A stretch of 64,000 nt of DNA from Candidatus Woesearchaeota archaeon. Its GTDB lineage: Archaea; Nanobdellota; Nanobdellia; Woesearchaeales; GW2011-AR4. Below, in pieces: positions 11,365 through 43,170 of this stretch. Made by a program: the position numbers and the translations under genes. Each line of letters begins with the position of its first letter. Position 1 is the first letter of the stretch. Location: assembly GCA_016180235.1 (NCBI GenBank), contig JACPBQ010000004.1, positions 371,352-435,351 on the forward strand, in the 5' to 3' direction. The notes below the pieces were generated by a model. It did not search any database. It was given only the letters and a program-made list of their open reading frames with translations, and was not told where the DNA came from.

Positions 11365-11375
11365 AGGTTATTAAA

Positions 11376-12113: not shown

Positions 12114-12114
12114 A

Positions 12115-13047: not shown

Positions 13048-13085
13048 GGATTGTGTACTTTGGACAATATATTCTGAAATAATAT

Positions 13086-13337
13086 CTAGAGGTGCTTTAG
13101 TATATTCTCACCTTTTTTAGTTTTTTCAAATATCTTATACTTCCTTGCTTTAGGAGTATGACAAACAACTAATCCTTTATTAATTAGGCTTTGCAATGCT
13201 CTTGTTACGTGCGCCTTATCAATTTTAACTTCTTTTTTTAGTTGGGTTGGTATTTTCGGTTGGTTTAATGCCCTCAAAATAAGTTCCCTATATCTACTTC
13301 TCTTGATGAAACTAATTAGTTGCCAATCTGTTGTCAT
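13086..13337 (-). CDS. Small winged-helix DNA-binding protein (ArsR/MarR-like, archaeal type)
   Basis: 83 aa, RSRYRELILRAL..PKIPTQL....IDKAHVTRALQSLINKGLV.C...RKYKIFE.T.KG, a typical wHTH pattern. Confidence 0.82.
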   Translation of the reverse strand: MTTDWQLISFIKRSRYRELILRALNQPKIPTQLKKEVKIDKAHVTRALQSLINKGLVVCHTPKARKYKIFEKTKKGENILKHL

Positions 13338-13338
13338 A

Positions 13339-13396
13339 TAGTTACTTTACATAAACTTTATAAAGAAATTGTTGCCTAATGGTTACATTTAGTTAC
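13339..13396. promoter_or_regulatory. Divergent promoter with palindromic TATA and three GTTAC boxes (candidate operator)
   Basis: ctttataaag palindrome at 13356-13365; tagttac at 13339, tggttac at 13380 and tagttac at 13390. Confidence 0.45.
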
Positions 13397-13410
13397 AAAT
13401 AAATACTAAT

Positions 13411-14199
13411 ATGATAAAAGATTTTTATGAAGAGGTCGAGAGTAGTGGAAGTTCCGTAAAAACAAAAACAGACCTGCAAAATTATGGTGTGAATTATTTA
13501 AATGAATTAAGAAAGAAAGGATTTTCCGCAGAATTAAGTGATATAAACATAAAAATAAAAATTGTTACAAAGTTAGTAAAGAATTCAAAATTTAAAGATA
13601 TTTTAGAAATCGGCTGTGCAGTTAACCCCATGTTTCCATATTTTGATTTCAATTCTTATACAATAGTAGAGCCAAATGGCGTTTTTGTTGAGCAAATAAA
13701 CAAGGATTTGCCTACAAATGTACTAGTCATCCAAAATTTTATAGAAAATATCTCTTTCAAAAAAAAGTTTGATTTAATTATAATGAGCGGCGTTCTTCAT
13801 GAAGTCCAAAATCCTGGTGAGATTCTTCAAACTTTACACAAATTTAGCCATAAAAACACTTTGATTCATATTAACTTGCCTAATGCATTTTCATTTCATA
13901 GAGTATTAGCTTATGAAAGTGGCATCATTAAGAGCATATTCCAAAGTTCCAAATTGGATAAAATTCTTAAAAGACATCAATTTGACAAAAAAAGACTATT
14001 AAATCTGCTTCATAAAAATAATTTTAAAATTATCTCTACTGGAACTTTTCTAACTAAAGTACTAACCAATTCTCAATTAGAAATTTTAATCAATCAAAAG
14101 ATAGTTAGCAAGAAAATTCTAAAAGGTCTAGAAAAAATAAATAAATATATACCGGAATTAGGCTGCTATCTGTTTGCAAATGTTAAAATTAAAACTTAG
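13411..14199 (+). CDS. SAM-dependent methyltransferase, low-GC homologue of 11376..12113
   Basis: ILEIGCA, FDLIIMSGVLHE and INLPNAFSFHRVLA align with the 11376 protein. Confidence 0.82.
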   Translation: MIKDFYEEVESSGSSVKTKTDLQNYGVNYLNELRKKGFSAELSDINIKIKIVTKLVKNSKFKDILEIGCAVNPMFPYFDFNSYTIVEPNGVFVEQINKDLPTNVLVIQNFIENISFKKKFDLIIMSGVLHEVQNPGEILQTLHKFSHKNTLIHINLPNAFSFHRVLAYESGIIKSIFQSSKLDKILKRHQFDKKRLLNLLHKNNFKIISTGTFLTKVLTNSQLEILINQKIVSKKILKGLEKINKYIPELGCYLFANVKIKT

Positions 14200-17636: not shown

Positions 17637-18383
17637 CTATGCTATCCTGTATTTTTTCCTCAATTCCTCATTAACCTGATTAAGGGTCTTTATCCTGAAT
17701 CCATCTCTTGTAAGAAAATATTCCTGTATGGTTTTTCCCCATTTTTTGAATGGAGTCGGATGAGTAAGGACTATGACCAAACCGTTTGTTTTCCTTCCGA
17801 TATCCACAATATCCTTATACAAGCTTTTTATGTTATTTCCCTTGTTCCTGTATAGGTTGATGAACTCTATCTCGGGAAAATGAGGGTATTCTATAAGGCC
17901 CAAGTCTGTAAGGAACGGCCTGAACAATGTAAGCTTTGTCCAGTTGTCATAGCTCGAATCTGCCTTGAAATGGCCTTTCAAAAGCCTTAGGTCAGGAAGA
18001 TGATATTGGTGCGCCCTTACTATCCCTGTTTTCCTGCCTATTAAATCATCTATCAGCTTTTTCTCCTTCAAAACTTTATCCATATTGCTGCCTATGAAAT
18101 TTGCATGGTACTGGAAGTCCCATTGGGAATGCGAGTTTATCCACTTTTTTGACGGATGTGACATCGCAAGAAGGAACATGGTTGATTTTATGCCATATTT
18201 CCTTTCCATATCAACAATAGCGTCAATATTCGGCTCATAACCCTCGTCTATGTCATGGGTAAAGACCATTGTAGGCTCATTTAACGCTAAAGTTTCCCTG
18301 TAATGGTCAAGGTACTTTGTTTTGGCATAATTTTTCCTCAGCCTTCTTATTGTGGCCGCAGCAAGGTAATGGAAATATTTCAT
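17637..18383 (-). CDS. Polysaccharide deacetylase-like protein (NodB/CE4-like fold)
   Basis: FTHDIDE, TMFLL, QYHA, VRAHQY, DSSY and VLTHP. Confidence 0.65.
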   Translation of the reverse strand: MKYFHYLAAATIRRLRKNYAKTKYLDHYRETLALNEPTMVFTHDIDEGYEPNIDAIVDMERKYGIKSTMFLLAMSHPSKKWINSHSQWDFQYHANFIGSNMDKVLKEKKLIDDLIGRKTGIVRAHQYHLPDLRLLKGHFKADSSYDNWTKLTLFRPFLTDLGLIEYPHFPEIEFINLYRNKGNNIKSLYKDIVDIGRKTNGLVIVLTHPTPFKKWGKTIQEYFLTRDGFRIKTLNQVNEELRKKYRIA

Positions 18384-23870: not shown

Positions 23871-25694
23871 ATGAGTTTTGTAACCATACTATTGTTTTTT
23901 GTATATACTTACTGCCTTGGATTTGCTGTATCTTCTTTTGTAAAGAACTCTGAAAATTTTCTTGAGAGAAACCTCATGAGGATAGGATTCGGGCTCTCTT
24001 TGCTTCCTTTTTTGGGATTAATCTTGAATTTATTTAATGTGCCGATAGACTGGAAGATCATTCTGGCATTGTCATTGGCATATCCCATATATTACCTTAT
24101 CAAGAACAAGCCAGTGCCCAAATTTGCCTTTAAGCTGACTAAAACAGACTTAAGCATTCTGGCCATGCTTGTTATTTTTTTAATCAACCTTTACATTTAT
24201 GCTTCAGGGGCTTTTGCCTATCCTTATCTGGAGGATGACGATTCATGGAGCCATGCTGTAGGCTCAAAATTTGTTGCTATAGAAAAAACTGTTTTTGCAA
24301 GTGTTGGAAATCGGTTTCATTATATCGATCCTTATCCGCCAACCTATGATTTGCTTATGGGCCTATTGCACCAGACAAATGATTCCATATACTGGACTTT
24401 GAAGTTTTTCAACGCGCTCATAATATCCTTGTCTACAATTTTCTTTTACTTTTTTGTGAAGGAATTCACAGGCAGCAGGAACAAGGCCTTATTTGCAGCT
24501 TTTGCCCTGCTTTCCATACCTGCATTCATGTCGCATTTCATATGGGCTTTGTCCTTGACAGTACCCCTTTACTTTGTCGTTTTCTATGCCCTGGAAATGA
24601 TCAAGCATGACAGGAGATGGTGGATTGTAGCTGCATTGAGCATGGTTACAGTTCTAACATCCTCTCCAACACACTCAACTTATTTCGGCTTGATTTTGAT
24701 CTTATATCTTGCAACTAAAGTAATACTTGAGAGGAAAATTTTAGTATGGCATATCGTTTCCGGAGCTGTGGGCCTTGCGTTGTCCCTTGTTTTTTGGTGG
24801 ATCCCCATGATATTGAGTTATGGCATTGACGGGACATTGACAGGCTTAGGATTCAGCTTTGCTGATGTGAAGGAAGCAGGCCTTGGAGGCGCTTTGCAGG
24901 GAACAGGCGACAGGATCTATACCTTCCCAGATTTTTTTATGGCACAAAAGCAGAACATGATAAACAATCCTATAGGGATAGGAATAGCCTTGTCCATTTT
25001 AGCGATTATTGGTATAATATTTATTATTTTAAACTATAAAACTTTATTGAAGAAAGAAAACCATTGGGCTATTATAACTCTGGTATTGTTTTTATTTACT
25101 TTATATGCTGTCAATGCCGCAAGATTCCCTGTCAAGCTTTCCCCGTTCAGGGCATGGATGCTTTTAGCTATTCCCGTATGCATTTTAGCTGCTGAAGGGG
25201 CTTTTAATATAGCAAAAATATCCAAAAACTCAGCAGGAACAATCGGCATGTTCGGAATTTTAATAATCCTGGTATTGGGAGTATATTTTACCTCTACCCA
25301 GCAGAAGATAGCGGTAAATACAGCCTCATGGCCCCCAGGCGCTTTCTGGACTTCCGGAGAGGAAATAGGGGCTTATGTATGGGTAAAACAAAATCTGCCT
25401 ACAAATTCAAATGTATTCACTTTTTCAAATAACGGCCCAGTCATCGGCATGGACATGTATGCCTGCCACTGGTGCAAAGATGATTCGGATTATATGAATA
25501 AAGGGTTTAACCAGACTGCGGAAGAGAACTACAATTGGCTGAAAAGCAAAGGATATGAATATCTTATCATTGACGGGCAGGCAGCAAGGAAATTCGGAGC
25601 TGACAATTTGAATACTAAGGTGCAGGAGCTTGGGCAGTCCGGATTATTCAAACCGGTGTTCCAGAACCAGGGAGCGCTGATATTTAAGGTTTAA
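23871..25694 (+). CDS. Multi-pass membrane protein, GT-C-fold glycosyltransferase-like
   Basis: Many TM segments, first external loop EDDDSWSHA, YPPTY and a soluble C-terminal domain; no WWDYG motif. Confidence 0.6.
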   Translation: MSFVTILLFFVYTYCLGFAVSSFVKNSENFLERNLMRIGFGLSLLPFLGLILNLFNVPIDWKIILALSLAYPIYYLIKNKPVPKFAFKLTKTDLSILAMLVIFLINLYIYASGAFAYPYLEDDDSWSHAVGSKFVAIEKTVFASVGNRFHYIDPYPPTYDLLMGLLHQTNDSIYWTLKFFNALIISLSTIFFYFFVKEFTGSRNKALFAAFALLSIPAFMSHFIWALSLTVPLYFVVFYALEMIKHDRRWWIVAALSMVTVLTSSPTHSTYFGLILILYLATKVILERKILVWHIVSGAVGLALSLVFWWIPMILSYGIDGTLTGLGFSFADVKEAGLGGALQGTGDRIYTFPDFFMAQKQNMINNPIGIGIALSILAIIGIIFIILNYKTLLKKENHWAIITLVLFLFTLYAVNAARFPVKLSPFRAWMLLAIPVCILAAEGAFNIAKISKNSAGTIGMFGILIILVLGVYFTSTQQKIAVNTASWPPGAFWTSGEEIGAYVWVKQNLPTNSNVFTFSNNGPVIGMDMYACHWCKDDSDYMNKGFNQTAEENYNWLKSKGYEYLIIDGQAARKFGADNLNTKVQELGQSGLFKPVFQNQGALIFKV

Positions 25695-30892: not shown

Positions 30893-30945
30893 CCAAACAA
30901 AAAGGTATATAAATTAACGACTGTTCTTTTTATTTGAAGGCAAAA

Positions 30946-32307
30946 ATGAATGTCATTCTTATTGTAGTAGATGCATTGCGCTTTGACCATCTGGGCATAG
31001 GCGGCTATGGCAGGGATACAAGCCCGAATATAGACAAGCTTGCCAAAAAAGGCACAATATTCCCAAATGCCTACTGCCCCTTGCCAAGGACAGACCCTTC
31101 AATGATGTCTATTTTTACCGGCATGTACCCCCATAACCACGGGATAAGGCTGGTAGCCAACAACAAGGCTGATGCTTCTTTGGCAACTTTAGCTGAAACA
31201 CTCAAAAACCATGCATATAAAACGGCATTCATAGGCGGATTTGGAGTGCATGACCACGCTTTAGAGAAAGGATTTGATGATTTTAACCTGATGGGATGGA
31301 AAATAAGATCTAAAATCAAGAGAACCATTTTCAAGGCATATAACCCATCGAATTATTACGGAGAGGCAAGGCAATACACCGATATAGCGGTAAACTGGAT
31401 CAGGAAGAATTCCAAAAACAAGTTCTTTTTATGCGTCCACTACGAGGATCTGCATTGGCCTTATGAGGCCCCAAAGCCTTTTGAGCATATGTTTGATCCC
31501 GAATACGGGGGAAACCATGATTTTAACACAGTAAATCATGGAAAATTCTCAAGAGGAGAGCTTATTTTCGGCAAGGCAAAACTGCCGAAGGAAGAAATAG
31601 AGCACGCGATTGCACATTATGACGGCGGCATAAGATACATAGATGCTCAAATTCACAGGCTGCTGGGCTGCGTTGAAAGCCATGGGCTTGACGATGATAC
31701 GCTAATAATACTGACTGCCGACCATGGCGAAAATTTCGGCGAGCATAATTTTTATTTCCAGCACGGAGCAAGCCTTTACGAGCCCAGCCTGAAAGTTCCT
31801 ATGATATTAAACCATTCCAAATCAATCCCCCGAGGAAAAATAATAAGCCAAAGGGTCCGGAATTTTGACATAATGCCCACTGTACTTGATATTCTTGGAA
31901 TACCGATCCTTGATAAGATTGACGGAGCAAGCCTTTTGCCCTTGATAAAAGGCGAGGGCAAAAAAACCCTGAATTTCATTTTTGCCGAAAGCATTGAAGA
32001 GCATTTTAAAGGGAATGAAAGGGTATTTTTTCCAGGCATTAAGGGCAAATGGAGGGCCATGATAGAAGGGGACTGGAAAATCATTTACATACCGCATCCG
32101 AAAAATGATATCTTTGAATTATACAACCTTAGAGAGGACCCTCAGGAAAAAAATGACCTTATAGGCAAAGAAAAAGAAATCGCTTCAAAAATGAAAGAAA
32201 AGATCCTGGATTTTTTAAAGCCACAAAGTAATGAAGGAGATGCAAATATCACAAACCTTGCTGAAAAATCAAAAAAACTGCTGAGAAAGATCGGCTATTT
32301 GGAATAG
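30946..32307 (+). CDS. Sulfatase-like hydrolase/transferase (alkaline phosphatase superfamily), Thr at the nucleophile position
   Basis: VILIVVDALRFD, PRTDPSMMSIFTG in place of CxPxR, HWPY, YDGGIRYID, TADHGE and ELYNL.EDP.E; no signal peptide or TM. Confidence 0.88.
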   Translation: MNVILIVVDALRFDHLGIGGYGRDTSPNIDKLAKKGTIFPNAYCPLPRTDPSMMSIFTGMYPHNHGIRLVANNKADASLATLAETLKNHAYKTAFIGGFGVHDHALEKGFDDFNLMGWKIRSKIKRTIFKAYNPSNYYGEARQYTDIAVNWIRKNSKNKFFLCVHYEDLHWPYEAPKPFEHMFDPEYGGNHDFNTVNHGKFSRGELIFGKAKLPKEEIEHAIAHYDGGIRYIDAQIHRLLGCVESHGLDDDTLIILTADHGENFGEHNFYFQHGASLYEPSLKVPMILNHSKSIPRGKIISQRVRNFDIMPTVLDILGIPILDKIDGASLLPLIKGEGKKTLNFIFAESIEEHFKGNERVFFPGIKGKWRAMIEGDWKIIYIPHPKNDIFELYNLREDPQEKNDLIGKEKEIASKMKEKILDFLKPQSNEGDANITNLAEKSKKLLRKIGYLE

Positions 32308-32310
32308 AAA

Positions 32311-33432
32311 ATGATTAACCTGTTCAGGAAAAAAAAGCCAAACGTAATTATGATAATGATAGACGGCCTTAGGCATGATGCCCTTAGCATGGTTCCTTAT
32401 TACAACGAGCTGAAAAAGGAAGCAACGTTCTTTTCCAGGCTGATTACTTATGCTCCATATACTATAGGCTCATTGCATGCACTATTCTCAGGCATGAACG
32501 GCAACCAGAATGGCGTTAACGGCTATTACAGGAGCTACAGCTTCGACAAGAAAAACTGCTTTACGCTGGCGCAGTACATGAAAGAACAAGGATACTACAC
32601 AGAATGCGACCTTATCTACGAGAGCATAATTCCCACACAGGGGTTTGAAAAGGTGAGAACGCATGACGAGTTCAAAGACGACCTAACCAAAAAGCACTCA
32701 GAGATCCTGAACCAAATAAAAAACAAAAAGCCATTCTTTCTTTTTCTGGATTACAGCAAAATACACACAAACCTCGTGAGCAATGTAATCAAAAAATATT
32801 CCGATTTTGACAGGGAATACTTCAATAATAAGGATAATAATTTTAAGAATTACCTGGAGTGGGCAAAGGCAAGCGCAGACTACCTCAAATCTATTATTGA
32901 AAAAATAAAAGATGCCAAATTATGGGATGATTCGATAATTCTTGTATTCACAGACCATGGCGGCAGCACCGGAGACAAAGTCGGGGAGAGGGCATACGGA
33001 GTCTACCTTTATGAATACACATTGAGGTGCTTCTTATACATCATAGGGAAGGATTTTCCCAAAAACCTGCAGATAGATCATATTGCCCAAAGCATTGACA
33101 TCCTGCCAACAATAATGGATATTTTCAGCGTGAAGGAGAAAGACGGCTATAAAAAAATTCAGGGAAAATCATTCCTGCCCTTCATTAAGGGAAAGCATGA
33201 TGGCAGGATTGCCTATTCCGAGACCGGAGGCTTGGGAGGGCCAACGCCATCTCCGGAAAAACACAATCTAAAATGCGTCCGGAATGACAGATGGAAGCTG
33301 ATTTATAACGAAAGCAGCAAAAAAAAAGAACTTTATGACCTGGAAGCGGATCCTGAAGAGAAAGACAATCTGGCCGGCAAGGGACTGGCAGAAGAAAAGG
33401 AGCTCTGGGAAGAGCTGCAAAAATACAATTAG
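32311..33432 (+). CDS. Second sulfatase-like hydrolase/transferase, Thr at the nucleophile position
   Basis: PNVIMIMIDGLRHD, APYTIGSLHALFSG, FTDHG, SIDILPT and ELYDL..DPEE. Confidence 0.82.
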   Translation: MINLFRKKKPNVIMIMIDGLRHDALSMVPYYNELKKEATFFSRLITYAPYTIGSLHALFSGMNGNQNGVNGYYRSYSFDKKNCFTLAQYMKEQGYYTECDLIYESIIPTQGFEKVRTHDEFKDDLTKKHSEILNQIKNKKPFFLFLDYSKIHTNLVSNVIKKYSDFDREYFNNKDNNFKNYLEWAKASADYLKSIIEKIKDAKLWDDSIILVFTDHGGSTGDKVGERAYGVYLYEYTLRCFLYIIGKDFPKNLQIDHIAQSIDILPTIMDIFSVKEKDGYKKIQGKSFLPFIKGKHDGRIAYSETGGLGGPTPSPEKHNLKCVRNDRWKLIYNESSKKKELYDLEADPEEKDNLAGKGLAEEKELWEELQKYN

Positions 33433-33482
33433 GCTTTTTTCTTAAATACCGGAAATGCAGCACATAGCCTAATTCCGAAAGA

Positions 33483-33509
33483 TTTAAAAAGCCACTAGTA
33501 ACACTAGTA
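33483..33509 (+). promoter_or_regulatory. TATA box plus tandem CACTAGTA boxes (candidate operator) of the phosphonate operon
   Basis: tttaaaaa starts 30 nt before ATG 33513; cactagta at 33493-33500 and 33502-33509, each with the palindromic ACTAGT core. Confidence 0.55.
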
Positions 33510-33512: not shown

Positions 33513-34061
33513 ATGAAGAAACCAGTGTGGGCAAACAAATCCAATGGGCAGCTATGCGTGACTATACCCAAAGGCTCAGGGATAAAAGAAGGGGACATAG
33601 TCAATGTGGAAAAGGAGAAAATCAACACTATTGTCTACAGCTCTGTTACAGGCGACATGTTCCACTACGGGCACCTCAGGCTGCTCCAGAAAGCGAATGA
33701 GCTTGGAGATTTTCATATATGCGGGGTTGTTACCGATGAAGCGATAAGATCCTACAAAGAAGAGCCTATAGCAGGCCTAAAAGAAAGAAAAACAATCATC
33801 TCGGACCTCAGATGCGTGGACATGGTCATGGTGCAGGGCAATTTAGACCCGACAGAAAACCTGCAAAAAATACATGCGCAGTTCCCTTATGCAAAAATAA
33901 TCCTTGTATACGGCTCAAACTGGAAAAAGGTGCCTGGGGCAGATTATATGAAGAAAATTAACGGCAAAATAATGCAGCCGGAATTTTACGGGAAATTATC
34001 GACAGAGAACATCATCAGGAAAATCTTCAGAATCTACAGGAATGGAGCTGGCATCAAATGA
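33513..34061 (+). CDS. Cytidylyltransferase (HxGH family) with an N-terminal AbrB/MazE-like domain
   Basis: Residues 1-35 contain GQLCVTIPK..GIKEGD.V.V; then GDMFHYGH, GVVTD and VYGSNW. Confidence 0.8.
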   Translation: MKKPVWANKSNGQLCVTIPKGSGIKEGDIVNVEKEKINTIVYSSVTGDMFHYGHLRLLQKANELGDFHICGVVTDEAIRSYKEEPIAGLKERKTIISDLRCVDMVMVQGNLDPTENLQKIHAQFPYAKIILVYGSNWKKVPGADYMKKINGKIMQPEFYGKLSTENIIRKIFRIYRNGAGIK

Positions 34062-35359
34062 AAAAAGTTTATGTGGGAATGAGCACTGACGTAGTGCATC
34101 ACGGCCATATAAAAATAATAGAGGAAGCGAGAAAGCTTGGCGAAGTGACAGTAGGATTGCTGACAGACAATGCCATTGCGAATTATAAAAGGATTCCGCT
34201 GCTGTCATATGAACAGAGGAAAAAAATAATAGAGAACATAAAAGGAGTAAAAGAAGTGATCCCTCAGGAAACGCTCGATTATGGGCCAAATCTTATAATG
34301 CTAAAACCGGACTATGTAGTCCATGGCACTGACTGGCGCGAAGGCGTGCAGAAAAAGGCGAGGGAAGGAGTTATTGAAACGCTTAAGGGATGGGGAGGCT
34401 TGCTTGTAGAGCCCGAGTACACCAAAGATATTTCTGCAACCCAATTGGCCAATGCAATCAATAAGATAGGGACTACGCCTGAAATCAGGCTGAAAAAACT
34501 GAGGAGACTTTTAGAGCTTAAGCCGATAGTCAGGATTATGGAAGTGCATAACGGCCTTACAGGAAGGATTGTAGAAACGACAAGAATTGCTGAGGAAGGA
34601 AATGTAAAGGAATTCGACGGCATGTGGGAAAGCAGCCTTACCGATTCAACATCAAAAGGAAAGCCGGACATAGAGCTCGTTGATTTTACTTCCAGGCTGC
34701 AGACAATAGACCAGATTTTTGAGGTCACGACCAAGCCCATGATTGTTGACGGCGACACCGGGGGCTTAGTGGAGCATTTTGTCTATACTGTAAAGACGCT
34801 TGAAAGGCTCGGGGTATCTGCAGTCATAATAGAGGACAAGACAGGGCTGAAGAAAAACTCGCTTTTCGGCACCGAAGTAAAACAGGAGCAGGAAGCCATA
34901 GAAAATTTCTCGCATAAAATATCCGAGGGGAAAAAAGCCCAGGTTACGGAAGATTTCATGATAATAGCAAGGATAGAGAGCCTGATACTGAACAAAGGCG
35001 TTGAAGATGCCCTTAAAAGGGCAAGAGCCTATATTGAAGCCGGAGCAGACGGCATAATGATACACAGCAAGGAAAAAGACCCAAAAGAAGTCCTTGATTT
35101 CTGCAGGGAATACTCTAAATTTGAAGACAAAGTGCCCCTGGTGGCTGTTCCCAGCTCATATAATTCCATTACAGAGGACGAATTAGCCAATGCAGGCGTA
35201 AAAATAGTGATATACGCGAATCATCTTTTGAGGAGCGCGTATCCTGCCATGATAAAGGCAGCAGAATCCATATTGAGGAACGGAAGGTGCAAGGAAGCAT
35301 CGGAAGAACACTGCATGCCCATAAATGAAATCCTGAACCTGATTCCGGGAGGCAAATAA
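34058..35359 (+). CDS. aepX: Phosphoenolpyruvate mutase with an N-terminal cytidylyltransferase domain
   Basis: HHGH NTase domain; EVHNGLTG, WESSLTDS, DGDTGG and the PepM signature EDKTGLKKNS. Confidence 0.96.
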   Translation: MKKVYVGMSTDVVHHGHIKIIEEARKLGEVTVGLLTDNAIANYKRIPLLSYEQRKKIIENIKGVKEVIPQETLDYGPNLIMLKPDYVVHGTDWREGVQKKAREGVIETLKGWGGLLVEPEYTKDISATQLANAINKIGTTPEIRLKKLRRLLELKPIVRIMEVHNGLTGRIVETTRIAEEGNVKEFDGMWESSLTDSTSKGKPDIELVDFTSRLQTIDQIFEVTTKPMIVDGDTGGLVEHFVYTVKTLERLGVSAVIIEDKTGLKKNSLFGTEVKQEQEAIENFSHKISEGKKAQVTEDFMIIARIESLILNKGVEDALKRARAYIEAGADGIMIHSKEKDPKEVLDFCREYSKFEDKVPLVAVPSSYNSITEDELANAGVKIVIYANHLLRSAYPAMIKAAESILRNGRCKEASEEHCMPINEILNLIPGGK

Positions 35360-35374
35360 AATCCCTGATCAAAA

Positions 35375-36493
35375 ATGATACCATGCAAGAAATTCTATAA
35401 TGCCCTGATCCGCAACGGAATAGGCTTTTTTACCGGCGTTCCAGACTCTTTGCTGAAAGATTTCTGCGCTTACGTGACTGACAACACTCCAGAGGAAAAA
35501 AACATAATTGCAGCAAATGAGGGCAATGCAGTTGCGCTGGCTTCAGGCTATCATCTCGCAACCGGAAAAGCAGGGTTAGTGTACATGCAGAATTCCGGAT
35601 TTGGAAATACAGTAAATCCTTTAACTTCTTTGGCAGACGAGGAAGTCTATTCCATCCCGATGCTCCTGCTGATCGGATGGAGGGGAGGGCCAACTGCCAA
35701 GGATGAGCCACAGCACAAAAAAATGGGCAAAATCACACTAGAACTTTTGCAGACACTGGAAATACCCTATGAAATACTCGGTGAAAATTACGCAGAAACG
35801 ATAAAAAATGCAGCGGCCCATATGAAAAGCAGAAAATCGCCTTATGCGATTGTTGTCAAAAATGACACATTCGAAAAATATGAATTAAGGAGCAAAAAAG
35901 AGACTAATTACGGGTTAAACAGGGAAGATGCAATAAATCTCATTGTCCCTTTGCTTGACGAGAATGGCATAATTGTATCAACAACCGGAATGACCTCAAG
36001 GGAATTGTTCGAGATAAGGGAAGCAGGCAAGGAAGGCCATGAAAAGGATTTCCTCACAGTGGGATGCATGGGTCATTCCTCATCGATTGCTCTGACACTT
36101 GCAGCGGAAAAGCCCGGAAATGATGTCTATTGCCTTGACGGCGACGGGGCCTTAATAATGCACATGGGAGCTTTGGCTATAATAGGGCAGCTGAAGCCGA
36201 AGAACTTCAAGCACATTGTTTTCAATAATTTTGCCCACGATTCCGTCGGAGGGCAGCCAACCGCAGCCTATAATATCAATATTCCGGCAATTGCGAAAGC
36301 CAACGGCTACACAGACGCATTTTCCGCAGAAACCAGAGAGGATATAATAAGCAAGATAGAAGATATGAAGGAAATGGATGGGCCAGTTTTGCTTGAAATC
36401 AAAGTGAACAAAGGCGCAAGAAAAAACCTTGGAAGGCCTACAACAACGCCAATCCAGAATAAGGAAGCTTTTATGGGGTTTTTGAAAGGATAA
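35375..36493 (+). CDS. aepY: Phosphonopyruvate decarboxylase
   Basis: FTGVPDSLLK, ANEGNAVALASG, YMQNSGFGN.VNP, DEPQH, VG.MGH.SS and LDGDGA. Confidence 0.95.
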   Translation: MIPCKKFYNALIRNGIGFFTGVPDSLLKDFCAYVTDNTPEEKNIIAANEGNAVALASGYHLATGKAGLVYMQNSGFGNTVNPLTSLADEEVYSIPMLLLIGWRGGPTAKDEPQHKKMGKITLELLQTLEIPYEILGENYAETIKNAAAHMKSRKSPYAIVVKNDTFEKYELRSKKETNYGLNREDAINLIVPLLDENGIIVSTTGMTSRELFEIREAGKEGHEKDFLTVGCMGHSSSIALTLAAEKPGNDVYCLDGDGALIMHMGALAIIGQLKPKNFKHIVFNNFAHDSVGGQPTAAYNINIPAIAKANGYTDAFSAETREDIISKIEDMKEMDGPVLLEIKVNKGARKNLGRPTTTPIQNKEAFMGFLKG

Positions 36494-36494
36494 A

Positions 36495-37634
36495 ATGCCG
36501 CAGCAAGAATATTTAGGCTATAATTCGATAGAAAACTTAAGAAATATTTTATCTAAGCACATCCCTAAATCCATTTTTTTAGTTACCCATAAAGATTCTT
36601 ATGAGAGATGCGGGGCAAAATCAATAATAGACAGTTTTCTGAATAGCAGCAATCTAGCCCATTTTAATGATTTTGAGATAAACCCAAAAATAGAAGACAT
36701 TGAAAGAGGAATCAACATTTTTAAAAAGAACAATTGTGATTTTGTAATTGCCGTTGGGGGAGGCAGCGCCATGGACACTGCTAAATCAATAAATCTTTTT
36801 GCCAATAATCCCGGCAATCCAATGGACTATATCCAAAAAAAGCAAATTATAGAAAATAAAGGCAAAACTTTAGCCGCTATACCGACAACTTCCGGTTCCG
36901 GGAGCGAAGCAACGAAGTTTGCAGTCATTTACACTGAAAAAATAAAGCAGTCTTTGGAGCACGAATTCATGCTTCCTGATTACGCAATTGTCGATCCGCA
37001 GTTTACAATGAGCCTGCCAAAGTATGTCACTGCATGCAGCGGCATGGATGCCTTATCGCAAGGTATAGAATCCTATTGGTGTGTCAATTCAAATGAAGAA
37101 TCAAAAAAATACGCAAAAGAGGCAATCAAGCTCGTAATTAAAAATCTTTCTGCTGCTGTAAACAATCCCTCTAAAGAGTCAAGGGAGGCAATGTCAAAAG
37201 CAGCTCATTTGGCAGGAAAAGCCATCAATATATCAAAAACAACAGCCTGCCACGCAGTCTCTTACCCAATCACCTCTTATTTCAATCTTCCCCATGGGCA
37301 TGCAGTGGCATTGACCTTGCCATCAATGCTGATATATAACTCTAAAGTCGATGAAAACAGCTTATTGGACAAAAGAGGCATAATTTATGTCAAAAAAACC
37401 ATTAATGAAATCATAAAATTCATTGATGCTAAAAGTGCTGATGATGCGGGCAAAAAATTGCAAAATTTGATGATTGGCATAGGATTAAGCACTCAACTGG
37501 GCCAATTAGGAATAAAAACCGAAGACGATGTCAAATTGATAATCCAGCGGGGCTTTAACCCGCAAAGGGTCAACAATAACCCAAGAAGATTAACTGAAGA
37601 GGCTTTGAAAGAAATTCTGGAAAAAATAAGATGA
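36495..37634 (+). CDS. Phosphonoacetaldehyde reductase (iron-containing alcohol dehydrogenase)
   Basis: AVGGGSAMD.AK, PTTSGSGSEAT, DALSQ.IES and HAVSY...HGH; directly after aepY. Confidence 0.88.
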   Translation: MPQQEYLGYNSIENLRNILSKHIPKSIFLVTHKDSYERCGAKSIIDSFLNSSNLAHFNDFEINPKIEDIERGINIFKKNNCDFVIAVGGGSAMDTAKSINLFANNPGNPMDYIQKKQIIENKGKTLAAIPTTSGSGSEATKFAVIYTEKIKQSLEHEFMLPDYAIVDPQFTMSLPKYVTACSGMDALSQGIESYWCVNSNEESKKYAKEAIKLVIKNLSAAVNNPSKESREAMSKAAHLAGKAINISKTTACHAVSYPITSYFNLPHGHAVALTLPSMLIYNSKVDENSLLDKRGIIYVKKTINEIIKFIDAKSADDAGKKLQNLMIGIGLSTQLGQLGIKTEDDVKLIIQRGFNPQRVNNNPRRLTEEALKEILEKIR

Positions 37635-38344
37635 AAGCAATGCTGCTAAATTCAGGAGTAGGTAACAGACTTAGGCCATTTACAGATAGCAATCCAAAAT
37701 GCCTAATAAAAATCAATCATGACACCATCCTTGAGCACGAAATAAAAAACCTTTTGCATTACGGAATCAGGGATATAATAATAACAACCGGATTTTTCGA
37801 GGAAAAAATCAAGGATTTAATAAAAAACAAATTTCCTGAAGCAAACGTAAAATATGCAAAGAGCGACAAGCCGGACACAACAAATGCCATTTACTCCATG
37901 TGGCTGGCAAGGTACTTGGCGGATGACGACATATTGCTGATGCATGGCGACATGATTTTTGATAAAGAGCTGCTTGGAAGGCTCCTAAAATCAAAGCATC
38001 CCAGCTGCGCTTTAGTCAACAACAAAATAGAATTGCCGGAAAAAGACTTTAAGGCCAGGATAAACGGAGGCACTGTCATGGAAATAGGAGTGGATGTTTT
38101 CGGCAAAGATGCATTTTTCCTTGCTCCGGTTTACAGGATATCAAAAAAAGATTTTAGGCTATGGATGGAAGAAATAAGCAAATTCATAAAGAGGAAAGAT
38201 GTCACGGTATATGCGGAAAACGCCTTTAACAATATTTCCTCAAAACTCAAGCTTTATCCTGTTTATTACCAGGATGAATTCTGCATGGAAATAGACAATT
38301 TTGATGATTTACAGAAGGCAAGGAAGTTTTTTAGGCGAAAATAG
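37631..38344 (+). CDS. LicC/PntC-like NTP transferase (phosphonate cytidylyltransferase candidate)
   Basis: NSGVGNRL.P....PKCL, TNAIYS, MHGDMIFD and MEIDNFDDL. Confidence 0.85.
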   Translation: MKAMLLNSGVGNRLRPFTDSNPKCLIKINHDTILEHEIKNLLHYGIRDIIITTGFFEEKIKDLIKNKFPEANVKYAKSDKPDTTNAIYSMWLARYLADDDILLMHGDMIFDKELLGRLLKSKHPSCALVNNKIELPEKDFKARINGGTVMEIGVDVFGKDAFFLAPVYRISKKDFRLWMEEISKFIKRKDVTVYAENAFNNISSKLKLYPVYYQDEFCMEIDNFDDLQKARKFFRRK

Positions 38345-38369: not shown

Positions 38370-39860
38370 TTATTTTACTATCCTCCTATACAAGTCCTTT
38401 ACTTCCCTGATATCTATAATCCTGAACAAAAACAGCATAGCTGCATAGATTATTCCAGATATTACCAGGATAATAGCTGTTTCTGCCCAAATATTAAGGG
38501 ATAATACTCTCTTTAAGGCCCATATTAATAAGGTAAAGATTGCGCCAGCTAAAACCGTTCTTGCCCATATCCCTATGGGGAAAGACAGCTTTATGTATTT
38601 TCTCACATCCTTAAAGGTCAGGGCCATGATTATGAAATAGCTGGATGCTGTCGAAATTGCAGCCCCGATTATGCCGATAACCGGAATTAAAATCAGGTTT
38701 AACACGAAATTTAAGGCCGCGCCGAAATAAATAATTTTGCTGTATATCTGCGGCTTTCCGATGCCAGCAAAGAAGTTAGAGTTTATAACACTCAAAACAG
38801 CGAATATCATGCCTACAGCTAAAATTTTCATAGAAGTGCTGGCTGATAGATAGTCTTTTCCGTACAAAATCTGTATCAGCAAGTCGGTAAATGACAGCAT
38901 AACCAAAGCCAATGGAATAATCATTATGATGGAATACTTATAAAGTGATTCCATGCCTGCTATCAGTATCTTCTTGTTGTTTTTTGCCCACAGCTCGCTT
39001 GTCAGCGGAAGCAGGACAGCTGCAATAGGGAGTATAAAATTCCTCAATGCCCTGGCAGTCGGCAGCGCAACGCTGTACAAGGCTACAGCCTTTAAATCGG
39101 TAAAATAGGTTAACATTACAATATCCGTAGAGCCTAAGATCACAACACCAACACTTATAGATATAACATGTATCCCATACTTGAACAGTCTTTTTATCAG
39201 TTTTTTATTAAAGGAAAATTTTGATTTAAGAAAATCCGGAAAAACCTTCTTGACCAGTATCACGCTGAAAAGCACAGTTATGATGGCCGAGGCAATGACA
39301 TATGCATAAGCAGGGCTTAAAACACCATAATTTAGCTTTAGCCCAATTATGATTATAGATATTAATAACAATCCCCTTATTACGTCTATGCCGGAGAAGT
39401 AAACCGGCTTTTTGAACCCCTGAAAGGCAAATTTCAAGGTCTGCACAAAACTGTCAATGAAAAATGCTACTGCAAGGACTTTAAGAAGAATACCAGCTTC
39501 ATCATATTTAAAATAGTTTGCTGCAAGAAAATCGGAAAGAATGTAAAGAACTATTATGACCACAGAATTTGTCAATAGCTGTATAAATGCAGAATACATT
39601 ATGCAATTCTTTATCATGCTGCTTTTCTTCTTGTGCACAAATTCCGGGATGAATTTGGCCAGTGCGCGGTCAAAGCCCAGGCTCTTGAAGATGCCAAAAA
39701 TCCCCACAAAAGCAAACACGGCATAAAAAAGCCCAAACTCTTCCACTGAAAGGTTTCTTGCCAATAGCACCCTGACTACATAACCCAAAATAGCTGCTAT
39801 AATGGAAATCAGCAGAATTGTTGTTGCGCCCCTGACAGCGAATTTCGTATAGCTTTCCAT
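38370..39860 (-). CDS. Second polysaccharide flippase (alternative start at 39863)
   Basis: LARNLSVEEFG, TDIVML.....KAVALYSVA and LNLILIPVIGIIGAAIST; about 14 TM segments. Confidence 0.92.
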   Translation of the reverse strand: MESYTKFAVRGATTILLISIIAAILGYVVRVLLARNLSVEEFGLFYAVFAFVGIFGIFKSLGFDRALAKFIPEFVHKKKSSMIKNCIMYSAFIQLLTNSVVIIVLYILSDFLAANYFKYDEAGILLKVLAVAFFIDSFVQTLKFAFQGFKKPVYFSGIDVIRGLLLISIIIIGLKLNYGVLSPAYAYVIASAIITVLFSVILVKKVFPDFLKSKFSFNKKLIKRLFKYGIHVISISVGVVILGSTDIVMLTYFTDLKAVALYSVALPTARALRNFILPIAAVLLPLTSELWAKNNKKILIAGMESLYKYSIIMIIPLALVMLSFTDLLIQILYGKDYLSASTSMKILAVGMIFAVLSVINSNFFAGIGKPQIYSKIIYFGAALNFVLNLILIPVIGIIGAAISTASSYFIIMALTFKDVRKYIKLSFPIGIWARTVLAGAIFTLLIWALKRVLSLNIWAETAIILVISGIIYAAMLFLFRIIDIREVKDLYRRIVK

Positions 39861-39970
39861 CATTAACCGGCTTTTATTGCTATTTAAATTATTTATGAAT
39901 TATCAGCACTGGAAACACATTGCCCAAACAAAACCAAAAATTTATAAATCAAGTAGGATACTTCCACGAT

Positions 39971-41224
39971 ATGGAAAATCATCCAGGCATTGAGAATTCC
40001 GGAAATCCAAGTGAAATAAAGCATAAAGACAGCTCCGGAAGAATACTCCTGAATGTTGTCGAAAGCGGCCATGACGCAAACATTGCGGATAATGGCGCTA
40101 AAGCCACCAACGGCAGCCTGAATAAAAAATCCGCTGTGCAGCCCCTTAATTTCACCCATCATCTGCACAAGGTTTTGAACAAGGCAAACCAGCTGCCCTC
40201 TTACTTCATTTTTTACCCTACCAGCAGGTGCAACCTTAGCTGCAAGCATTGCTTTTACCATGATAGCCTAAACAAGAAATTCAACGAGCTTACGCTGGAA
40301 GAGATTGACAAGTTCACCAAGACCATGGATCCTCTGCTGCACCTGATCCTTACCGGAGGGGAGCCTTATCTGAGGCACGATATAGACGAGATTGTCAGGA
40401 TATTCTATGAGAACACCAGGGTTCCTATAATCTCAATACCATCAAACGGGTTTTTCAGGGACAGGATGGTGCAAAAAATCAGGAACATGATGGAATGGTG
40501 CCCTGAGCTGGTGCTCAACCAGCTGATTTCGCTGGACGGCCTGAGGGAAGAGCACGACAAGATCAGAGGGCCGGGGAGCTTTGACAAGTCCATCAAAACG
40601 CTTAATACATTAAAAGAGCTGCAAAAAGAGTACGGGCGCATAAATATCGGCATAGTAACGACATTCACATCACTAAACCAGCACAATTTCAAGGAAATTA
40701 TCAAGGGAGTCTTTGAGATAGCCAAGCCGGACAACATAACCATCACATTGATAAGAGGAGACCCAAAAGAAAAGATCAATGTCAATCTCGATATAAGCCT
40801 TTACAGGGAGGCTGTAAAGTACAGGGACTCATTATTCTTTTCCAAAGAGATGCCGGGACATATAGGGTTCAAGGGGAATAAAATAGCCACTGCTGCAAGA
40901 GTGATACTGAATGAGAAAGTGGAGCAGATTTACCAGACAAAACAATACCAGATGCCGTGCTACGCGGGAAACTTAAGCGGAGTGATGTATCCGGAAGGCC
41001 AGGTGCACCCGTGCGAAATCCTGGACAATTCCCATGCACTAGGCAACATCAGGGAATTTAACTATGACTTCAGGAAACTGTGGCTGTCCCAAAAAGCCAA
41101 GGAAGAGGTCAAATTTATCCGGGGCACAAACTGCTTCTGCACGCATGAATGCTTTAACACAGTAAACATACTCTTCAATGCAAAGTTCTATCCAAGGCTC
41201 ATAAAAATTGCGTCTTCTATCTGA
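39971..41224 (+). CDS. Radical SAM protein with a C-terminal SPASM/twitch Cys cluster
   Basis: CNLSCKHC (CxxxCxxC), LTGGEP, SLDG, CYAG, PCE and CFCTHEC; ATG 39971 is 30 nt after tttataaa at 39941. Confidence 0.9.
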   Translation: MENHPGIENSGNPSEIKHKDSSGRILLNVVESGHDANIADNGAKATNGSLNKKSAVQPLNFTHHLHKVLNKANQLPSYFIFYPTSRCNLSCKHCFYHDSLNKKFNELTLEEIDKFTKTMDPLLHLILTGGEPYLRHDIDEIVRIFYENTRVPIISIPSNGFFRDRMVQKIRNMMEWCPELVLNQLISLDGLREEHDKIRGPGSFDKSIKTLNTLKELQKEYGRINIGIVTTFTSLNQHNFKEIIKGVFEIAKPDNITITLIRGDPKEKINVNLDISLYREAVKYRDSLFFSKEMPGHIGFKGNKIATAARVILNEKVEQIYQTKQYQMPCYAGNLSGVMYPEGQVHPCEILDNSHALGNIREFNYDFRKLWLSQKAKEEVKFIRGTNCFCTHECFNTVNILFNAKFYPRLIKIASSI

Positions 41225-41236: not shown

Positions 41237-42253
41237 TCAATATCTCTTTCCCAGGAGGAAATCAACAAACCCTAAAATTATTCCTATCTGCGTCAGGGAA
41301 TTGTTTATTATGGACACAAAAAAAGCCAATGCAGAAAATCCAATACCTTTCTTCCTAGCCATGTACAAAAAGTAATCAATATTTATTAAAAAAAACATGC
41401 CGACTAAAAAAATCAATGCAAAAAACAATGAGCTTATGGGGAAAAAAACCAGCATCGCCAAGCCGAACAGTATAATGAAAGACAACGGGATAGATGCCAG
41501 CAGGGAAAAGCTGGAATGGCTTCCTTTCAATTCACGCGCGTCAAAGAGGTGCTTTTTTCTCAGGAGGCTTTTTATCTTGTCAAACCCCGTCCTGAAATCC
41601 TGCCTTACCAATGACTTAAAATTAAACTTTTTCATATGCATTACCTGAATGCTATTATCATAGAGTATCTTATGGCCCCTCCTCGTAAGCTCAATTCCAA
41701 ACTCCTCGTCCTCTATAGATGCGTTTCTGATTGAAGCGTCAAAACCGTGGCTATCGAGGAACACATCCTTCTTTATTGCGGTGCAAAACGAGGCTATGCT
41801 GTTTGAGTATCTTCCGGAACACTTTTTAAAATGGTAATGGAGCGTTATGTTCTTGAAAAAAGAGAAGAAATTGGCATAGTAAGGAACCAAAGTGTAGTTT
41901 CCCTGGAGCGCGCTTATCTCCCTGTGTGTTTCAAACGCATTTTTCACCGCTTCCAGAAAACCACTGCTTGCAAGAACATCGGAATCAATGAAAATCAGTA
42001 TCCTGCCTTTCGCTTCCTTTGCTCCAAAATTCCTGGCAAACCCCGGGCCATTGTTTTTTTCCAGGTAGAAATACCTCACTTTATATTTTTTAATAACATC
42101 TTTATGGCCTATGGTCGATCCGTCGTCTATGACCAGCACTTCAAAGTTCCTGTAATCCTGCGAGAACACTGACTTCAAGCACTTGTCCAGCAGATCCGGC
42201 CGGTTAAAAACAGGAATGATTATGGATATTTCAGGGATTTTTCCTTTAGCCAT
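41237..42253 (-). CDS. GT2 glycosyltransferase with C-terminal TM helices
   Basis: SIIIPVFN, VIDDGS, GPGFARN.G, FIDSD and EDEEFG. Confidence 0.9.
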   Translation of the reverse strand: MAKGKIPEISIIIPVFNRPDLLDKCLKSVFSQDYRNFEVLVIDDGSTIGHKDVIKKYKVRYFYLEKNNGPGFARNFGAKEAKGRILIFIDSDVLASSGFLEAVKNAFETHREISALQGNYTLVPYYANFFSFFKNITLHYHFKKCSGRYSNSIASFCTAIKKDVFLDSHGFDASIRNASIEDEEFGIELTRRGHKILYDNSIQVMHMKKFNFKSLVRQDFRTGFDKIKSLLRKKHLFDARELKGSHSSFSLLASIPLSFIILFGLAMLVFFPISSLFFALIFLVGMFFLINIDYFLYMARKKGIGFSALAFFVSIINNSLTQIGIILGFVDFLLGKRY

Positions 42254-42315
42254 CAATTATCCCCCCAAACGTTTTCCATATTTATAATCCTCCCAAGAAC
42301 GCTCATCCTAGGCAA

Positions 42316-43086
42316 TCATTTAATATCGAACTTGTGTATTTTTTTGATGCCTGATTTCTGGAGCCTGTACTGAATCAGGGATTTCATTATATTGAGCCCG
42401 TAGACAATTGAATTCCGAAATGATATATTGTGGGACTCAGGGCCGTAGTGGGTAGGTATCGGAATTTCCGCTATCCTCTTTTTTTTGATGTGAAGCTGGA
42501 TAAGTATGTCAGTGTCAAAGCTGTAGCCGTCTGTGCACCTTTCGATTGCTATGTCTTTCAAGGCGTCAATCCTGTATGCCCTGAAGCCTGTATGGTATTC
42601 TGAAAGCCTCAGCCCCAGGACAGCATTTTCAACAGCTGTCAGGAGCCTATTGCCAAAGTATTTCCAGATCGGCATGCCTCCTGCAAGCGGATTTCCAAGG
42701 AATCTTGAGCCCATCGACGCATCAGCCTTCCCTTCGATTATTGGCTTTATCAGCTGGGGTATATACTCCGGGGCATACTGGACATCGCCGTGCAGCATCA
42801 CTACCACATCATAGCCTTTTTTTATAGCATAATTATAGCCCTTTTTTTGGTTGCCGCCATAGCCAAGATTCTCCTTATTCCTGTAGATGTTCAGTTTTTT
42901 TACCTTGTTCCGGTATTTGTAGCCAAGTCCGGCGTAATAAGTATTGTCATCACTGCAATCATCAAAAACATATATTTCCTCTGCTCTTTTCTTTATTTCA
43001 TCAGGTATCCTTTCTATAGCTGATATCAGGGTTCGGACAGCCTGGTATGCTATAATAAAAATTGCAATCTTCATTTTTTTGCCCAT
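42316..43086 (-). CDS. GT2 glycosyltransferase (Dol-P sugar synthase-like)
   Basis: FIIAYQA, DDCSDD, GYGGNQK, LHGDVQY, MGSRF, SEYHTGFRAY and FDTDILIQ. Confidence 0.9.
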   Translation of the reverse strand: MGKKMKIAIFIIAYQAVRTLISAIERIPDEIKKRAEEIYVFDDCSDDNTYYAGLGYKYRNKVKKLNIYRNKENLGYGGNQKKGYNYAIKKGYDVVVMLHGDVQYAPEYIPQLIKPIIEGKADASMGSRFLGNPLAGGMPIWKYFGNRLLTAVENAVLGLRLSEYHTGFRAYRIDALKDIAIERCTDGYSFDTDILIQLHIKKKRIAEIPIPTHYGPESHNISFRNSIVYGLNIMKSLIQYRLQKSGIKKIHKFDIK

Positions 43087-43170
43087 TTTCTGCCCCAAGT
43101 CCCGTGTAAAGGTTAATTATTTAAATATATTATTTTTACCAGTCCTATTTGAAGAGTTAAAGGTGACTGC

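Follow-up and report, generated by a model that had tools for sequence, protein, structure and literature searches.

This analysis concerns a five-gene operon at positions 33513-38344 of a 64,000-nucleotide stretch of DNA from a Candidatus Woesearchaeota archaeon, the whole of which is called the window here, and the probable role of this operon in decorating a surface glycan with 2-hydroxyethylphosphonate (HEP). All five genes lie on the plus strand. The first, NT1 (33513-34061, 182 aa), carries a PF01467 CTP_transf_like domain (42.6 bits) and is followed by a fusion of a Fom1-type cytidylyltransferase (CyTase) with a phosphoenolpyruvate (PEP) mutase, PepM (34058-35359; N-terminal PF01467 and TIGR02320), a phosphonopyruvate decarboxylase, Ppd (35375-36493; TIGR03297), a group III iron-containing alcohol dehydrogenase, Fe-ADH (36495-37634; PF00465 and PF25137), and a LicC/PntC-like small nucleotidyltransferase (NTP_transferase, 37631-38344; PF00483 and PF12804). 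According to the list of open reading frames (ORFs), the junctions between these genes are -4, +15 (Ppd starts 15 nt past the PepM gene), +1 and -4 nt. A preliminary description, made from the sequence without database searches, had already proposed a tight operon of a nucleotidyltransferase, PepM, Ppd, Fe-ADH and LicC-type gene beside a flippase and glycosyltransferases; the ORF coordinates proved identical, and the families were confirmed with Pfam and NCBIfam. The two nucleotidyltransferase genes that it listed are both real, but it had overlooked a third nucleotidyltransferase-type domain fused to the N-terminus of PepM, and the locus holds three such domains, namely NT1, the CyTase domain of the fusion and the LicC-like protein.

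In the fusion protein, the CyTase domain spans aa 1-136 (34058-34465) and the PEP mutase domain aa 145-431 (34490-35350). The latter scores 409 bits with TIGR02320, against a curated cut-off of 320, and carries EDKTGLKKNS at aa 259-268. The PF01467 match of the fusion protein covers aa 11-128 and includes HHGH at aa 14-17, and the best match of the fused CyTase domain in the PDB is the Fom1 CyTase, 5x3d (E 3e-48), with 76 of 133 residues identical (57%) in an ungapped alignment. Close homologues bear the JGI name 'PEP phosphomutase / 2-hydroxyethylphosphonate cytidylyltransferase'. The Fom1 CyTase domain converts HEP and CTP to CMP-HEP, according to the summary of Cho et al. 2017 given in PMC6697681. 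Activation as a CMP conjugate, which the preliminary description had attributed to a PntC-type enzyme, is supported as such, but on these matches the maker of CMP-HEP would most likely be the Fom1-type domain fused to PepM and not necessarily the LicC/PntC-like enzyme. Ppd scores 493 bits with TIGR03297 (cut-off 312), and Fe-ADH has GGGS at aa 88 as well as the Asp/His metal-ligand motifs and is presumed to be the phosphonoacetaldehyde reductase that gives HEP.

The gene order was compared across a set of 92 related loci (handles beginning with L), 80 of which contain the CyTase-PepM (CyT-PepM) fusion, and across 301 genomes of the host's order. Gene identities, domain architecture and synteny are direct observations. 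The fusion gene is followed by Ppd in 75 of the 80 loci, with Fe-ADH next in 64, and this linkage ties the Fom1-type fusion tightly to the HEP branch; the core cassette of CyTase-PepM, Ppd and Fe-ADH recurs in many bacteria and archaea. Fusions of NT1 itself to PepM, suspected from long tblastn spans, turned out to be separate frames or separate ORFs in the loci examined, and a single CyT-PepM database homologue of 611 aa could be such a fusion.

Genes of competing phosphonate branches were searched for in the whole assembly, which comprises 1.04 Mb on 9 contigs and is 81% complete. For the 2-aminoethylphosphonate (AEP) transaminase (AEPT), the best TIGR03301 score in the assembly was 39 bits against a cut-off of 361, and tblastn with DPANN AEPT probes, taken from the sister loci L001 and L003 in which a class-V aminotransferase is present, gave no match. 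The probes for the MpnS family were the genes at L007:7373-8605 and L004:12136-13353, whose best PDB match is the methylphosphonate synthase of Nitrosopumilus maritimus, 6b9s (E 2e-59), and with these the best match to MpnS or HEPD in the assembly had an E-value of 0.12. They superseded a Cupin_2 scan, a weak proxy for MpnS, in which no large cupin protein was found in the assembly and matches occurred only in frames of 121 and 158 aa. Further, tblastn with DPANN probes found no TagF-like gene in the assembly, and LicD (PF04991) had no match in the genome. Probes for B12-dependent radical SAM proteins (B12-rSAM) had only distant matches in the assembly (at most 34% identity, on contigs C2, C6 and C9), the one on C9 lying about 366 kb from the operon, and the surroundings of the operon contain no Fom3-like gene. 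By these profile and probe searches, the lack of an AEP transaminase, HEPD and MpnS noted earlier for the window extends to the entire assembly. Since AEPT, MpnS/HEPD, TagF-like and LicD genes were not found in the assembly, nor a Fom3-like gene near the operon, HEP, in the form of CMP-HEP, would most likely be the final head group.

Related loci differ in this regard. Fom3-like B12 radical SAM genes are found in 13 of the 80 fusion loci, and in the sister genus (L084; genome G144, same family), where the cassette is otherwise syntenic, the gene immediately upstream of NT1 encodes a B12-binding radical SAM protein (L084:5271-6743) and a carbamoyltransferase gene separates the two sulfatase-fold genes; the phosphonate of this genus may be methylated or carbamoylated. 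Additionally, MpnS/HEPD-family genes stand beside the NT1/CyT-PepM cassette at two DPANN loci, L007 and L004, the former falling within the eight-member PepM clade of the window, which suggests methylphosphonate production in some Woesearchaeota-type archaea.

Two sulfatase-fold genes on the plus strand, Sulf1 (30934-32307; PF00884 189 bits, PF01663 Phosphodiest 66 bits) and Sulf2 (32311-33432; PF00884 79 bits), precede the operon, and the gap between Sulf2 and NT1 is only 80 bp. In an alignment with PDB structures, Thr53 of Sulf1 (PRTDPSM) falls opposite the C-x-x-x-R site of sulfatase 6hr5, and Thr51 of Sulf2 (APYTIGS) is at the nucleophile position; the PDB matches of Sulf2 are weak and include the lipoteichoic acid primase 4uop. 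Orthologues of both proteins have Thr or Ser at this position, never Cys. The C/S-x-P-x-R maturation motif of type I sulfatases is not present in Sulf1 (T-D-P-S-M), Sulf2 (T-I-G-S-L) or their orthologues, there being no Arg, and neither Sulf1 nor Sulf2 has a signal peptide or a membrane anchor. A Thr nucleophile is a hallmark of the transferase and diesterase branches of the superfamily, such as LtaS, EptA and NPP. Sulf1 and Sulf2 are the best candidates for the head-group (phosphonyl) transferases.

Clear Sulf2 orthologues number six among the 301 genomes, and in five cases a gene of the CyTase or LicC type is no more than about 4 kb away, whether PepM is present or not. The orthologue in the sister genus (L084) adjoins a PepM cassette, that in a PepM-negative genome (L085) adjoins a CyTase-PhnD-PhnC-PhnE-LicC cassette, where a flippase gene is also adjacent, and that in L086 is about 1.6 kb from a gene fusing NT1 to a kinase-like region. 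A PepM-negative congener (L083) has a LicC-like-Sulf1-Sulf2 unit beside a flippase in the same syntenic island. The consistent tie to CyTase-type and LicC-type genes supports a link between the Sulf pair and nucleotide-activated head groups. In many bacterial versions of the cassette, a TagF-like gene of the glycerophosphotransferase family (PF04464) comes directly after the dehydrogenase gene, which points to use of a CMP-activated donor, and 'arylsulfatase' genes have been described in marine pepM-aepY-phpC neighbourhoods (PMC9381506). The island of the congener (L083, genome G216, same genus; 6152-14049) reads epimerase, GT1, PMT_2, flippase, Sulf2, Sulf1 and AsnB; it is devoid of NT1, PepM, Ppd and the dehydrogenase, and a different LicC-like gene (24% identical) adjoins Sulf1. 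The genus is polymorphic for the HEP operon by insertion or deletion.

On the other side of the operon lies a MOP-family (Wzx-like) flippase gene (38370-39863, minus strand; PF01943 113 bits and PF13440), which is convergent with it. A flippase is syntenic beside the cassette in L002, L005, L084 and L085 and also at the congener locus L083, and it would export a lipid-linked decorated glycan. The rest of the window consists mostly of sugar-nucleotide enzymes, glycosyltransferases, methyltransferases and PMT_2-type membrane proteins, with GT2, GT1, PMT_2 and sugar-modifying genes found throughout by domain scans, and the window is a surface-glycan island. A separate full-length sugar-1-phosphate nucleotidyltransferase is encoded at 9680-10429, and two GT2 genes (41237-43098), on the strand opposite to the operon, lie beyond the flippase. 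Between these and the flippase is a radical SAM/SPASM gene (39920-41224), which has a TTG start and a 98-aa N-terminal extension with no family match and is absent from the syntenic sister-genus locus (L084). Its product was considered as a Fom3-like methylase and as an anaerobic sulfatase maturase, and both readings were rejected: it has no B12 domain, the gene is missing from that locus, and the sulfatase-fold proteins have no C/S-x-P-x-R motif. Three ORFs of the window have no Pfam match, at 23871-25694 (607 aa), 10426-11364 (312 aa) and 17637-18383 (248 aa); homologues of the 607-aa ORF occur in other glycan islands, at 48% in L088 and 35% in L085. Scans of the window for tRNA genes and Rfam families gave no matches. 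Outside the window, at C9:8566-11126 of the same genome, two divergent genes with open frames of 346 aa and 367 aa show two separate CDP-OH_P_transf matches each; such a tandem duplication within one protein is unusual.

The start of the operon has features of its own. A putative archaeal BRE/TATA-like promoter element (33475-33490, plus strand; ccgaaaga TTTAAAAA) with a TATA-like box at 33483-33490 lies about 27 nt 5' of the NT1 ATG, a position that implies a leaderless or near-leaderless transcript as the predicted product, and a corresponding 'cgaaag-tttaaata' element aligns upstream of most NT1 orthologues. Between this box and the ATG sits an operator-like double palindrome, ACTAGT-N3-ACTAGT (ACTAGTAACACTAGT; 33494-33508, strand not applicable). 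It occurs once in the 1.04-Mb genome (in the window, 1 against 0.03 expected), is exact before 21 of 23 NT1 orthologues and has one mismatch before the other two, and the 21 exact sites in 1.53 Mb of compared DNA are all upstream of an NT1 orthologue; like the synteny, the specificity of the site and its conservation are direct observations.

The best PDB matches of NT1 are the cytidylyltransferase ECT (3elb) and the Fom1 CyTase. Its N-terminal 35 aa are nearly invariant (W6, N8, N11-T17, P19, S22 and G23 in an alignment of 15 orthologues), and the HxGH histidines are replaced in 4 of the 15, for example by NYGQ in L011; the protein of the window retains HYGH and an ISxT-like motif. Because the site is unique in the genome and conserved before every NT1 orthologue, NT1 is probably an autoregulator, and the simplest reading is a ligand-sensing one with a nucleotidyltransferase-fold sensor that is possibly also an enzyme. 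NadR-type bifunctional regulators, in which a DNA-binding domain is fused to a PF01467-family nucleotidyltransferase, are comparable in that they also combine this fold with an N-terminal domain, a gene that heads the pathway and a palindromic promoter site. They differ in that the N-terminal segment of NT1 is not a helix-turn-helix and is only weakly AbrB-like.

In 14 of the 80 loci, the fusion gene comes after an NT1 orthologue (61-79% identity). Thirteen of these loci are labelled archaeal, while the fourteenth, L008, is labelled Saccharibacteria and looks DPANN-like; at bacterial loci, NT1 'matches' only the fused CyTase domain itself. Across the order, NT1 is present in 23 of 301 genomes, of which only 6 have PepM, and it is always the first gene of its cassette, whether this is PepM-fed, importer-fed or kinase-fused. 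Its cassette in L089, L092 and L093 encodes a binding protein of the PhnD type (PF12974, about 260 bits) together with PhnC, PhnE and a LicC-like protein, and that in L087 and L088 an MFS transporter; of the eight PhnD genes with the highest scores in the order, five are within 2 kb of an NT1 gene. The PepM-negative cassettes at L085:9518-15884, L089:9818-15173, L092 and L093, which combine NT1 or a CyTase with PhnD-like, PhnC, PhnE and LicC-like genes, look like a route to import, activate and attach ready-made phosphonates. In L090 and L086, NT1 is fused to a kinase-like region of about 800 aa running from PPDK_N to PEP-utilizer, the products of about 1000 aa (L090:8310-11312 and L086:6029-8923) having an NT1 module followed by PPDK_N and PEP-utilizer mobile domains in a rifampicin-phosphotransferase-like kinase architecture. 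In all, 11 of the 301 genomes have open frames of 954-1016 aa that match NT1, two of which were scanned for domains, and ACTAGT boxes are retained upstream in L090 and L091. One genome, G300, has two NT1 genes (C111:1574-3414 and C155:19854-22047), one beside PepM and the other beside a PhnD-type importer, and appears to hold both a de novo and a scavenging cassette.

The LicC-like gene is the last of the operon and is kept at the end of both PepM-fed and importer-fed cassettes. In the PDB, its product is most similar to LicC of Streptococcus pneumoniae (1jyk, 55 bits), with PntC (6pd1) at 40 bits. It is a candidate second activating enzyme, the substrate of which could be a phosphonate or a second phospho-alcohol. 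The minimal importer-fed cassette of L085 retains both a PF01467 CyTase and a LicC-like gene, a pair that points to two distinct steps of activation. Of the Ppm proteins surveyed by Rice et al. 2019 (PMC6697681), 2.9% are fused to both types of nucleotidyltransferase, and the pairing of CyTase-type and LicC-type enzymes is known and unexplained.

A search for rRNA genes in the assembly (RF01959) found none, and the host was instead placed with aEF-2, which scores 939 bits, above a cut-off passed only by archaeal control genomes, and whose closest named homologues (80-86% identity) are all Candidatus Woesearchaeota, Nanoarchaeia or Nanoarchaeota. This placement bears out the suggestion of a DPANN-like archaeon in the preliminary description, whereas its expectation that such a host would be notable has to be toned down, as many Woesearchaeota and Nanoarchaeota records already annotate PepM. 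PEP mutase matches with an E-value of 1e-30 or better were found in 14 of the 301 species-level genomes of the order (about 4-5%), 12 of them over the curated cut-off, a frequency comparable to the approximately 5% reported for bacteria (PMC8942020). The only other sampled genome of the same genus (96% complete) does not have PEP mutase, which is an accessory and patchily distributed trait in the order. Homologues of the fusion protein number in the thousands; the nearest (70-90% identity) come from metagenome-assembled genomes (MAGs) of Woesearchaeota and Nanoarchaeota and from marine and groundwater metagenomes, and those at 66-73% from Ignavibacteria, Bacteroidales, Clostridium, Marinimicrobia, CPR bacteria and Lokiarchaeum. 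A maximum-likelihood tree of 81 sequences places the protein of the window within an eight-member DPANN clade (support 98/99), and the archaeal label requires at least four changes on this tree, so the gene has moved between domains. Six of the compared loci (L001, L002, L007, L011, L017 and L008) are titled 'uncultured Methanosarcinales archaeon' or 'Candidatus Saccharibacteria', yet have the DPANN-type NT1, and their PepM sequences group with the DPANN-rich part of the tree; these MAGs probably bear wrong taxon labels. A literature search found no paper discussing phosphonate synthesis in Woesearchaeota or DPANN.

Taken as a whole, the operon is likely to be a phosphonyl-tailoring cassette in which CMP-HEP would be made and attached to a surface glycan. 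Enzymatic activities, acceptor, transferases and regulatory role are inferred from sequence. The PEP mutase domain would convert phosphoenolpyruvate to phosphonopyruvate, Ppd would decarboxylate this to phosphonoacetaldehyde, Fe-ADH would reduce the aldehyde to HEP, and the fused Fom1-type CyTase domain would join HEP and CTP to give CMP-HEP. The hydroxyethylphosphonyl group would then pass from CMP-HEP to a hydroxyl group on a lipid-linked glycan that the island builds, most likely in the cytoplasm and by one or both Sulf proteins through a covalent phosphonyl-Thr intermediate as in LtaS and EptA, after which the adjacent MOP flippase would export the decorated glycan to the cell surface. NT1 would probably bind ACTAGT-N3-ACTAGT and autoregulate the operon, with a nucleotide or a phosphonate as the ligand sensed. 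An HEP-decorated surface glycan had been put forward in the preliminary description, and it is the interpretation best supported by the family scores, the Fom1 CyTase match, the gene context and the 92 related loci.

Several observations weigh against this scheme. Fe-ADH stays below the cut-off of TIGR03405, the model for the PsrA-type Fe-ADH of phosphonate clusters (196 against 424 bits), and scores no better with it than with the lactaldehyde reductase model; the enzyme is generic by score, and its role as phosphonoacetaldehyde reductase therefore rests on the conserved position after Ppd. The three nucleotidyltransferase-type domains exceed the needs of a simple scheme, and no substrate is assigned to the LicC-like protein. 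The congener retains the Sulf1-Sulf2 pair without any PepM, so the pair is not phosphonate-specific, and Sulf1 and Sulf2 could be phosphodiesterases instead of transferases. For NT1, the similarity of the N-terminus to AbrB/MazE is weak (PF04014 E 0.19; hhalign 13% over 19 columns with a 4-residue gap), and the AlphaFold monomer has a pLDDT below 50 for aa 1-32. Finally, with 19% of the genome missing, the absence of tailoring genes is no proof.

The last point leaves room for HEP as a mere intermediate, converted to methylphosphonate, 2-hydroxypropylphosphonate or a hydroxylated derivative before attachment, by the product of a gene that lies in the missing 19% or goes unrecognised in the island. 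Close relatives have tailoring genes next to their cassettes (B12-rSAM at L084 and in 13 of 80 loci, MpnS-family at L007 and L004), and the window contains the radical SAM/SPASM gene at 39920-41224; that gene, however, is without a B12 domain and missing from the syntenic sister-genus locus, the host's own assembly has no MpnS/HEPD homologue, its B12-rSAM matches do not exceed 34% and none is near the operon, and the place of the B12-rSAM gene of the sister genus is taken here by the 80-bp gap between Sulf2 and NT1. We consider such a conversion improbable. The same holds for a fate of CMP-HEP as donor of a phosphonolipid head group through enzymes of the CDP-alcohol phosphotransferase family encoded elsewhere: two CDP-OH_P_transf genes are indeed on the same contig (C9:8566-11126), but they are about 360 kb from the operon, which itself sits among a Wzx-type flippase, glycosyltransferases and sugar-nucleotide enzymes, and there is no CDP-alcohol transferase among the approximately 50 ORFs of the window that were scanned. 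A free, secreted phosphonate, that is, an antibiotic or signal of the fosfomycin or phosphinothricin type for which CMP-HEP would be a transient and a sulfatase-fold, NPP-like enzyme would carry out release in the manner of FomD, has very little to commend it. Homology of three core genes to Fom1, Fom2 and FomC and the match of Sulf1 to the phosphodiesterase/NPP family PF01663 are in line with it, while the assembly lacks HppE, HEPD, peptide-ligase and exporter genes, no Fom3-like gene lies near the operon, which is set in a glycan island of a minimal DPANN genome of 1 Mb, and the Sulf pair persists with a LicC-like gene in the PepM-less congener.

A different question is whether NT1 is instead a second biosynthetic CyTase, for glycerol phosphate or ethanolamine phosphate, or the partner in an ECT-like pseudo-dimer, with another factor binding the site. 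The HYGH and ISxT-like motifs kept by NT1 of the window, its best PDB match to the tandem-domain ECT and the 611-aa database homologue as a candidate NT1-PepM fusion speak for an enzyme. Against this stand the loss of catalytic histidines in 4 of 15 orthologues next to an N-terminus of 35 nearly invariant residues, the restriction of the double palindrome to positions before NT1 orthologues, and the placement of NT1 at the head of differing supply modules (PepM, PhnDCE, MFS and kinase fusion), and an enzymatic role of this kind appears rather unlikely, if a serious contender.

Comparison with known systems helps to place the phosphonyl-tailoring cassette. The early steps of fosfomycin synthesis in Streptomyces wedmorensis (Fom1, Fom2 and FomC) involve the same three enzymes in the same order and with the same domain fusion, and likewise a predicted CMP-HEP; the window differs in having no Fom3 methyltransferase, FomD hydrolase or Fom4/HppE epoxidase and in being an archaeal glycan island, not an antibiotic cluster, and CMP-HEP is therefore taken to be the donor for decoration and not a transient protected intermediate. 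With the bacterial Pnt pathway (Ppm-Ppd-AEPT, PntC and LicD-like; Rice et al. 2019, PMC6697681), in whose survey PF01467-Ppm fusions make up 23.6% of Ppm, the operon shares the logic of make, activate and transfer and a LicC/PntC-like gene. In contrast to that pathway, the lack of a transaminase makes HEP instead of AEP the expected head group, the place of LicD is taken by two Thr-type sulfatase-fold proteins, and there is an extra regulator-like gene of CyTase fold, NT1, with its own operator. Clusters of N. maritimus and marine methylphosphonate producers (pepM-ppd-pdh-mpnS, PMC9381506) also have an archaeal host and HEP as an intermediate, and their neighbourhoods hold glycosyltransferase, nucleotidyltransferase and 'arylsulfatase' genes, from which phosphonate esters of exopolysaccharides were inferred (PMC9381506); here, MpnS is missing from the assembly, the host is not a thaumarchaeon but belongs to the DPANN archaea, and PepM is fused to a CyTase domain. 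The Lic and teichoic-acid systems (LicC/LicD, TagD/TagF and LtaS/LtaP) similarly use activation of the PF01467 or LicC type followed by transfer to a glycan. LtaS and LtaP of Gram-positive bacteria are sulfatase-fold enzymes with a Thr nucleophile, LtaS being extracellular and using a lipid donor, whereas Sulf1 and Sulf2 have no signal peptides or membrane anchors and the head group here would have a C-P bond. Judged by its genes, the operon is a new member of the Fom1/Fom2/FomC-type HEP module in a Pnt-like surface-tailoring setting, and it does not classify with the AEP (Pnt sensu stricto), methylphosphonate or fosfomycin pathways.

The core pathway is in itself ordinary, its chemistry being known and widespread, and less ordinary are NT1 with its operator and the Thr-type Sulf pair that replaces LicD or TagF. 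As a tentative extension, which we hold to be possible but on balance doubtful, the Woesearchaeales could have a modular system of head-group decoration that joins an NT1 autoregulator, which would sense through its CyTase fold and recognise ACTAGT-N3-ACTAGT through a new short DNA-binding segment, with interchangeable supply modules (de novo HEP, AEP, methylphosphonate, a PhnDCE or MFS importer, or a PPDK-like kinase) and a new class of cytoplasmic CMP-phosphonate transferases with a Thr nucleophile. By analogy with LtaP and LtaS, and given the free hydroxyl of HEP, the Sulf pair might even assemble short chains of poly(hydroxyethylphosphonate). Polysaccharide esters of HEP and methylphosphonate are a sizeable share of marine dissolved organic phosphorus, and to our knowledge most of the enzymes for the attachment of phosphonates to glycans have yet to be assigned. 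In this regard, the locus offers a compact and testable set, including a Fom1-type activator, two soluble Thr-type proteins of the alkaline-phosphatase superfamily and a regulator-like protein with a sharply defined operator. The cassette would further mean that DPANN archaea with reduced genomes invest both genes and phosphorus in C-P chemistry at the surface, a matter of relevance to their interaction with hosts, phages and hydrolytic enzymes.

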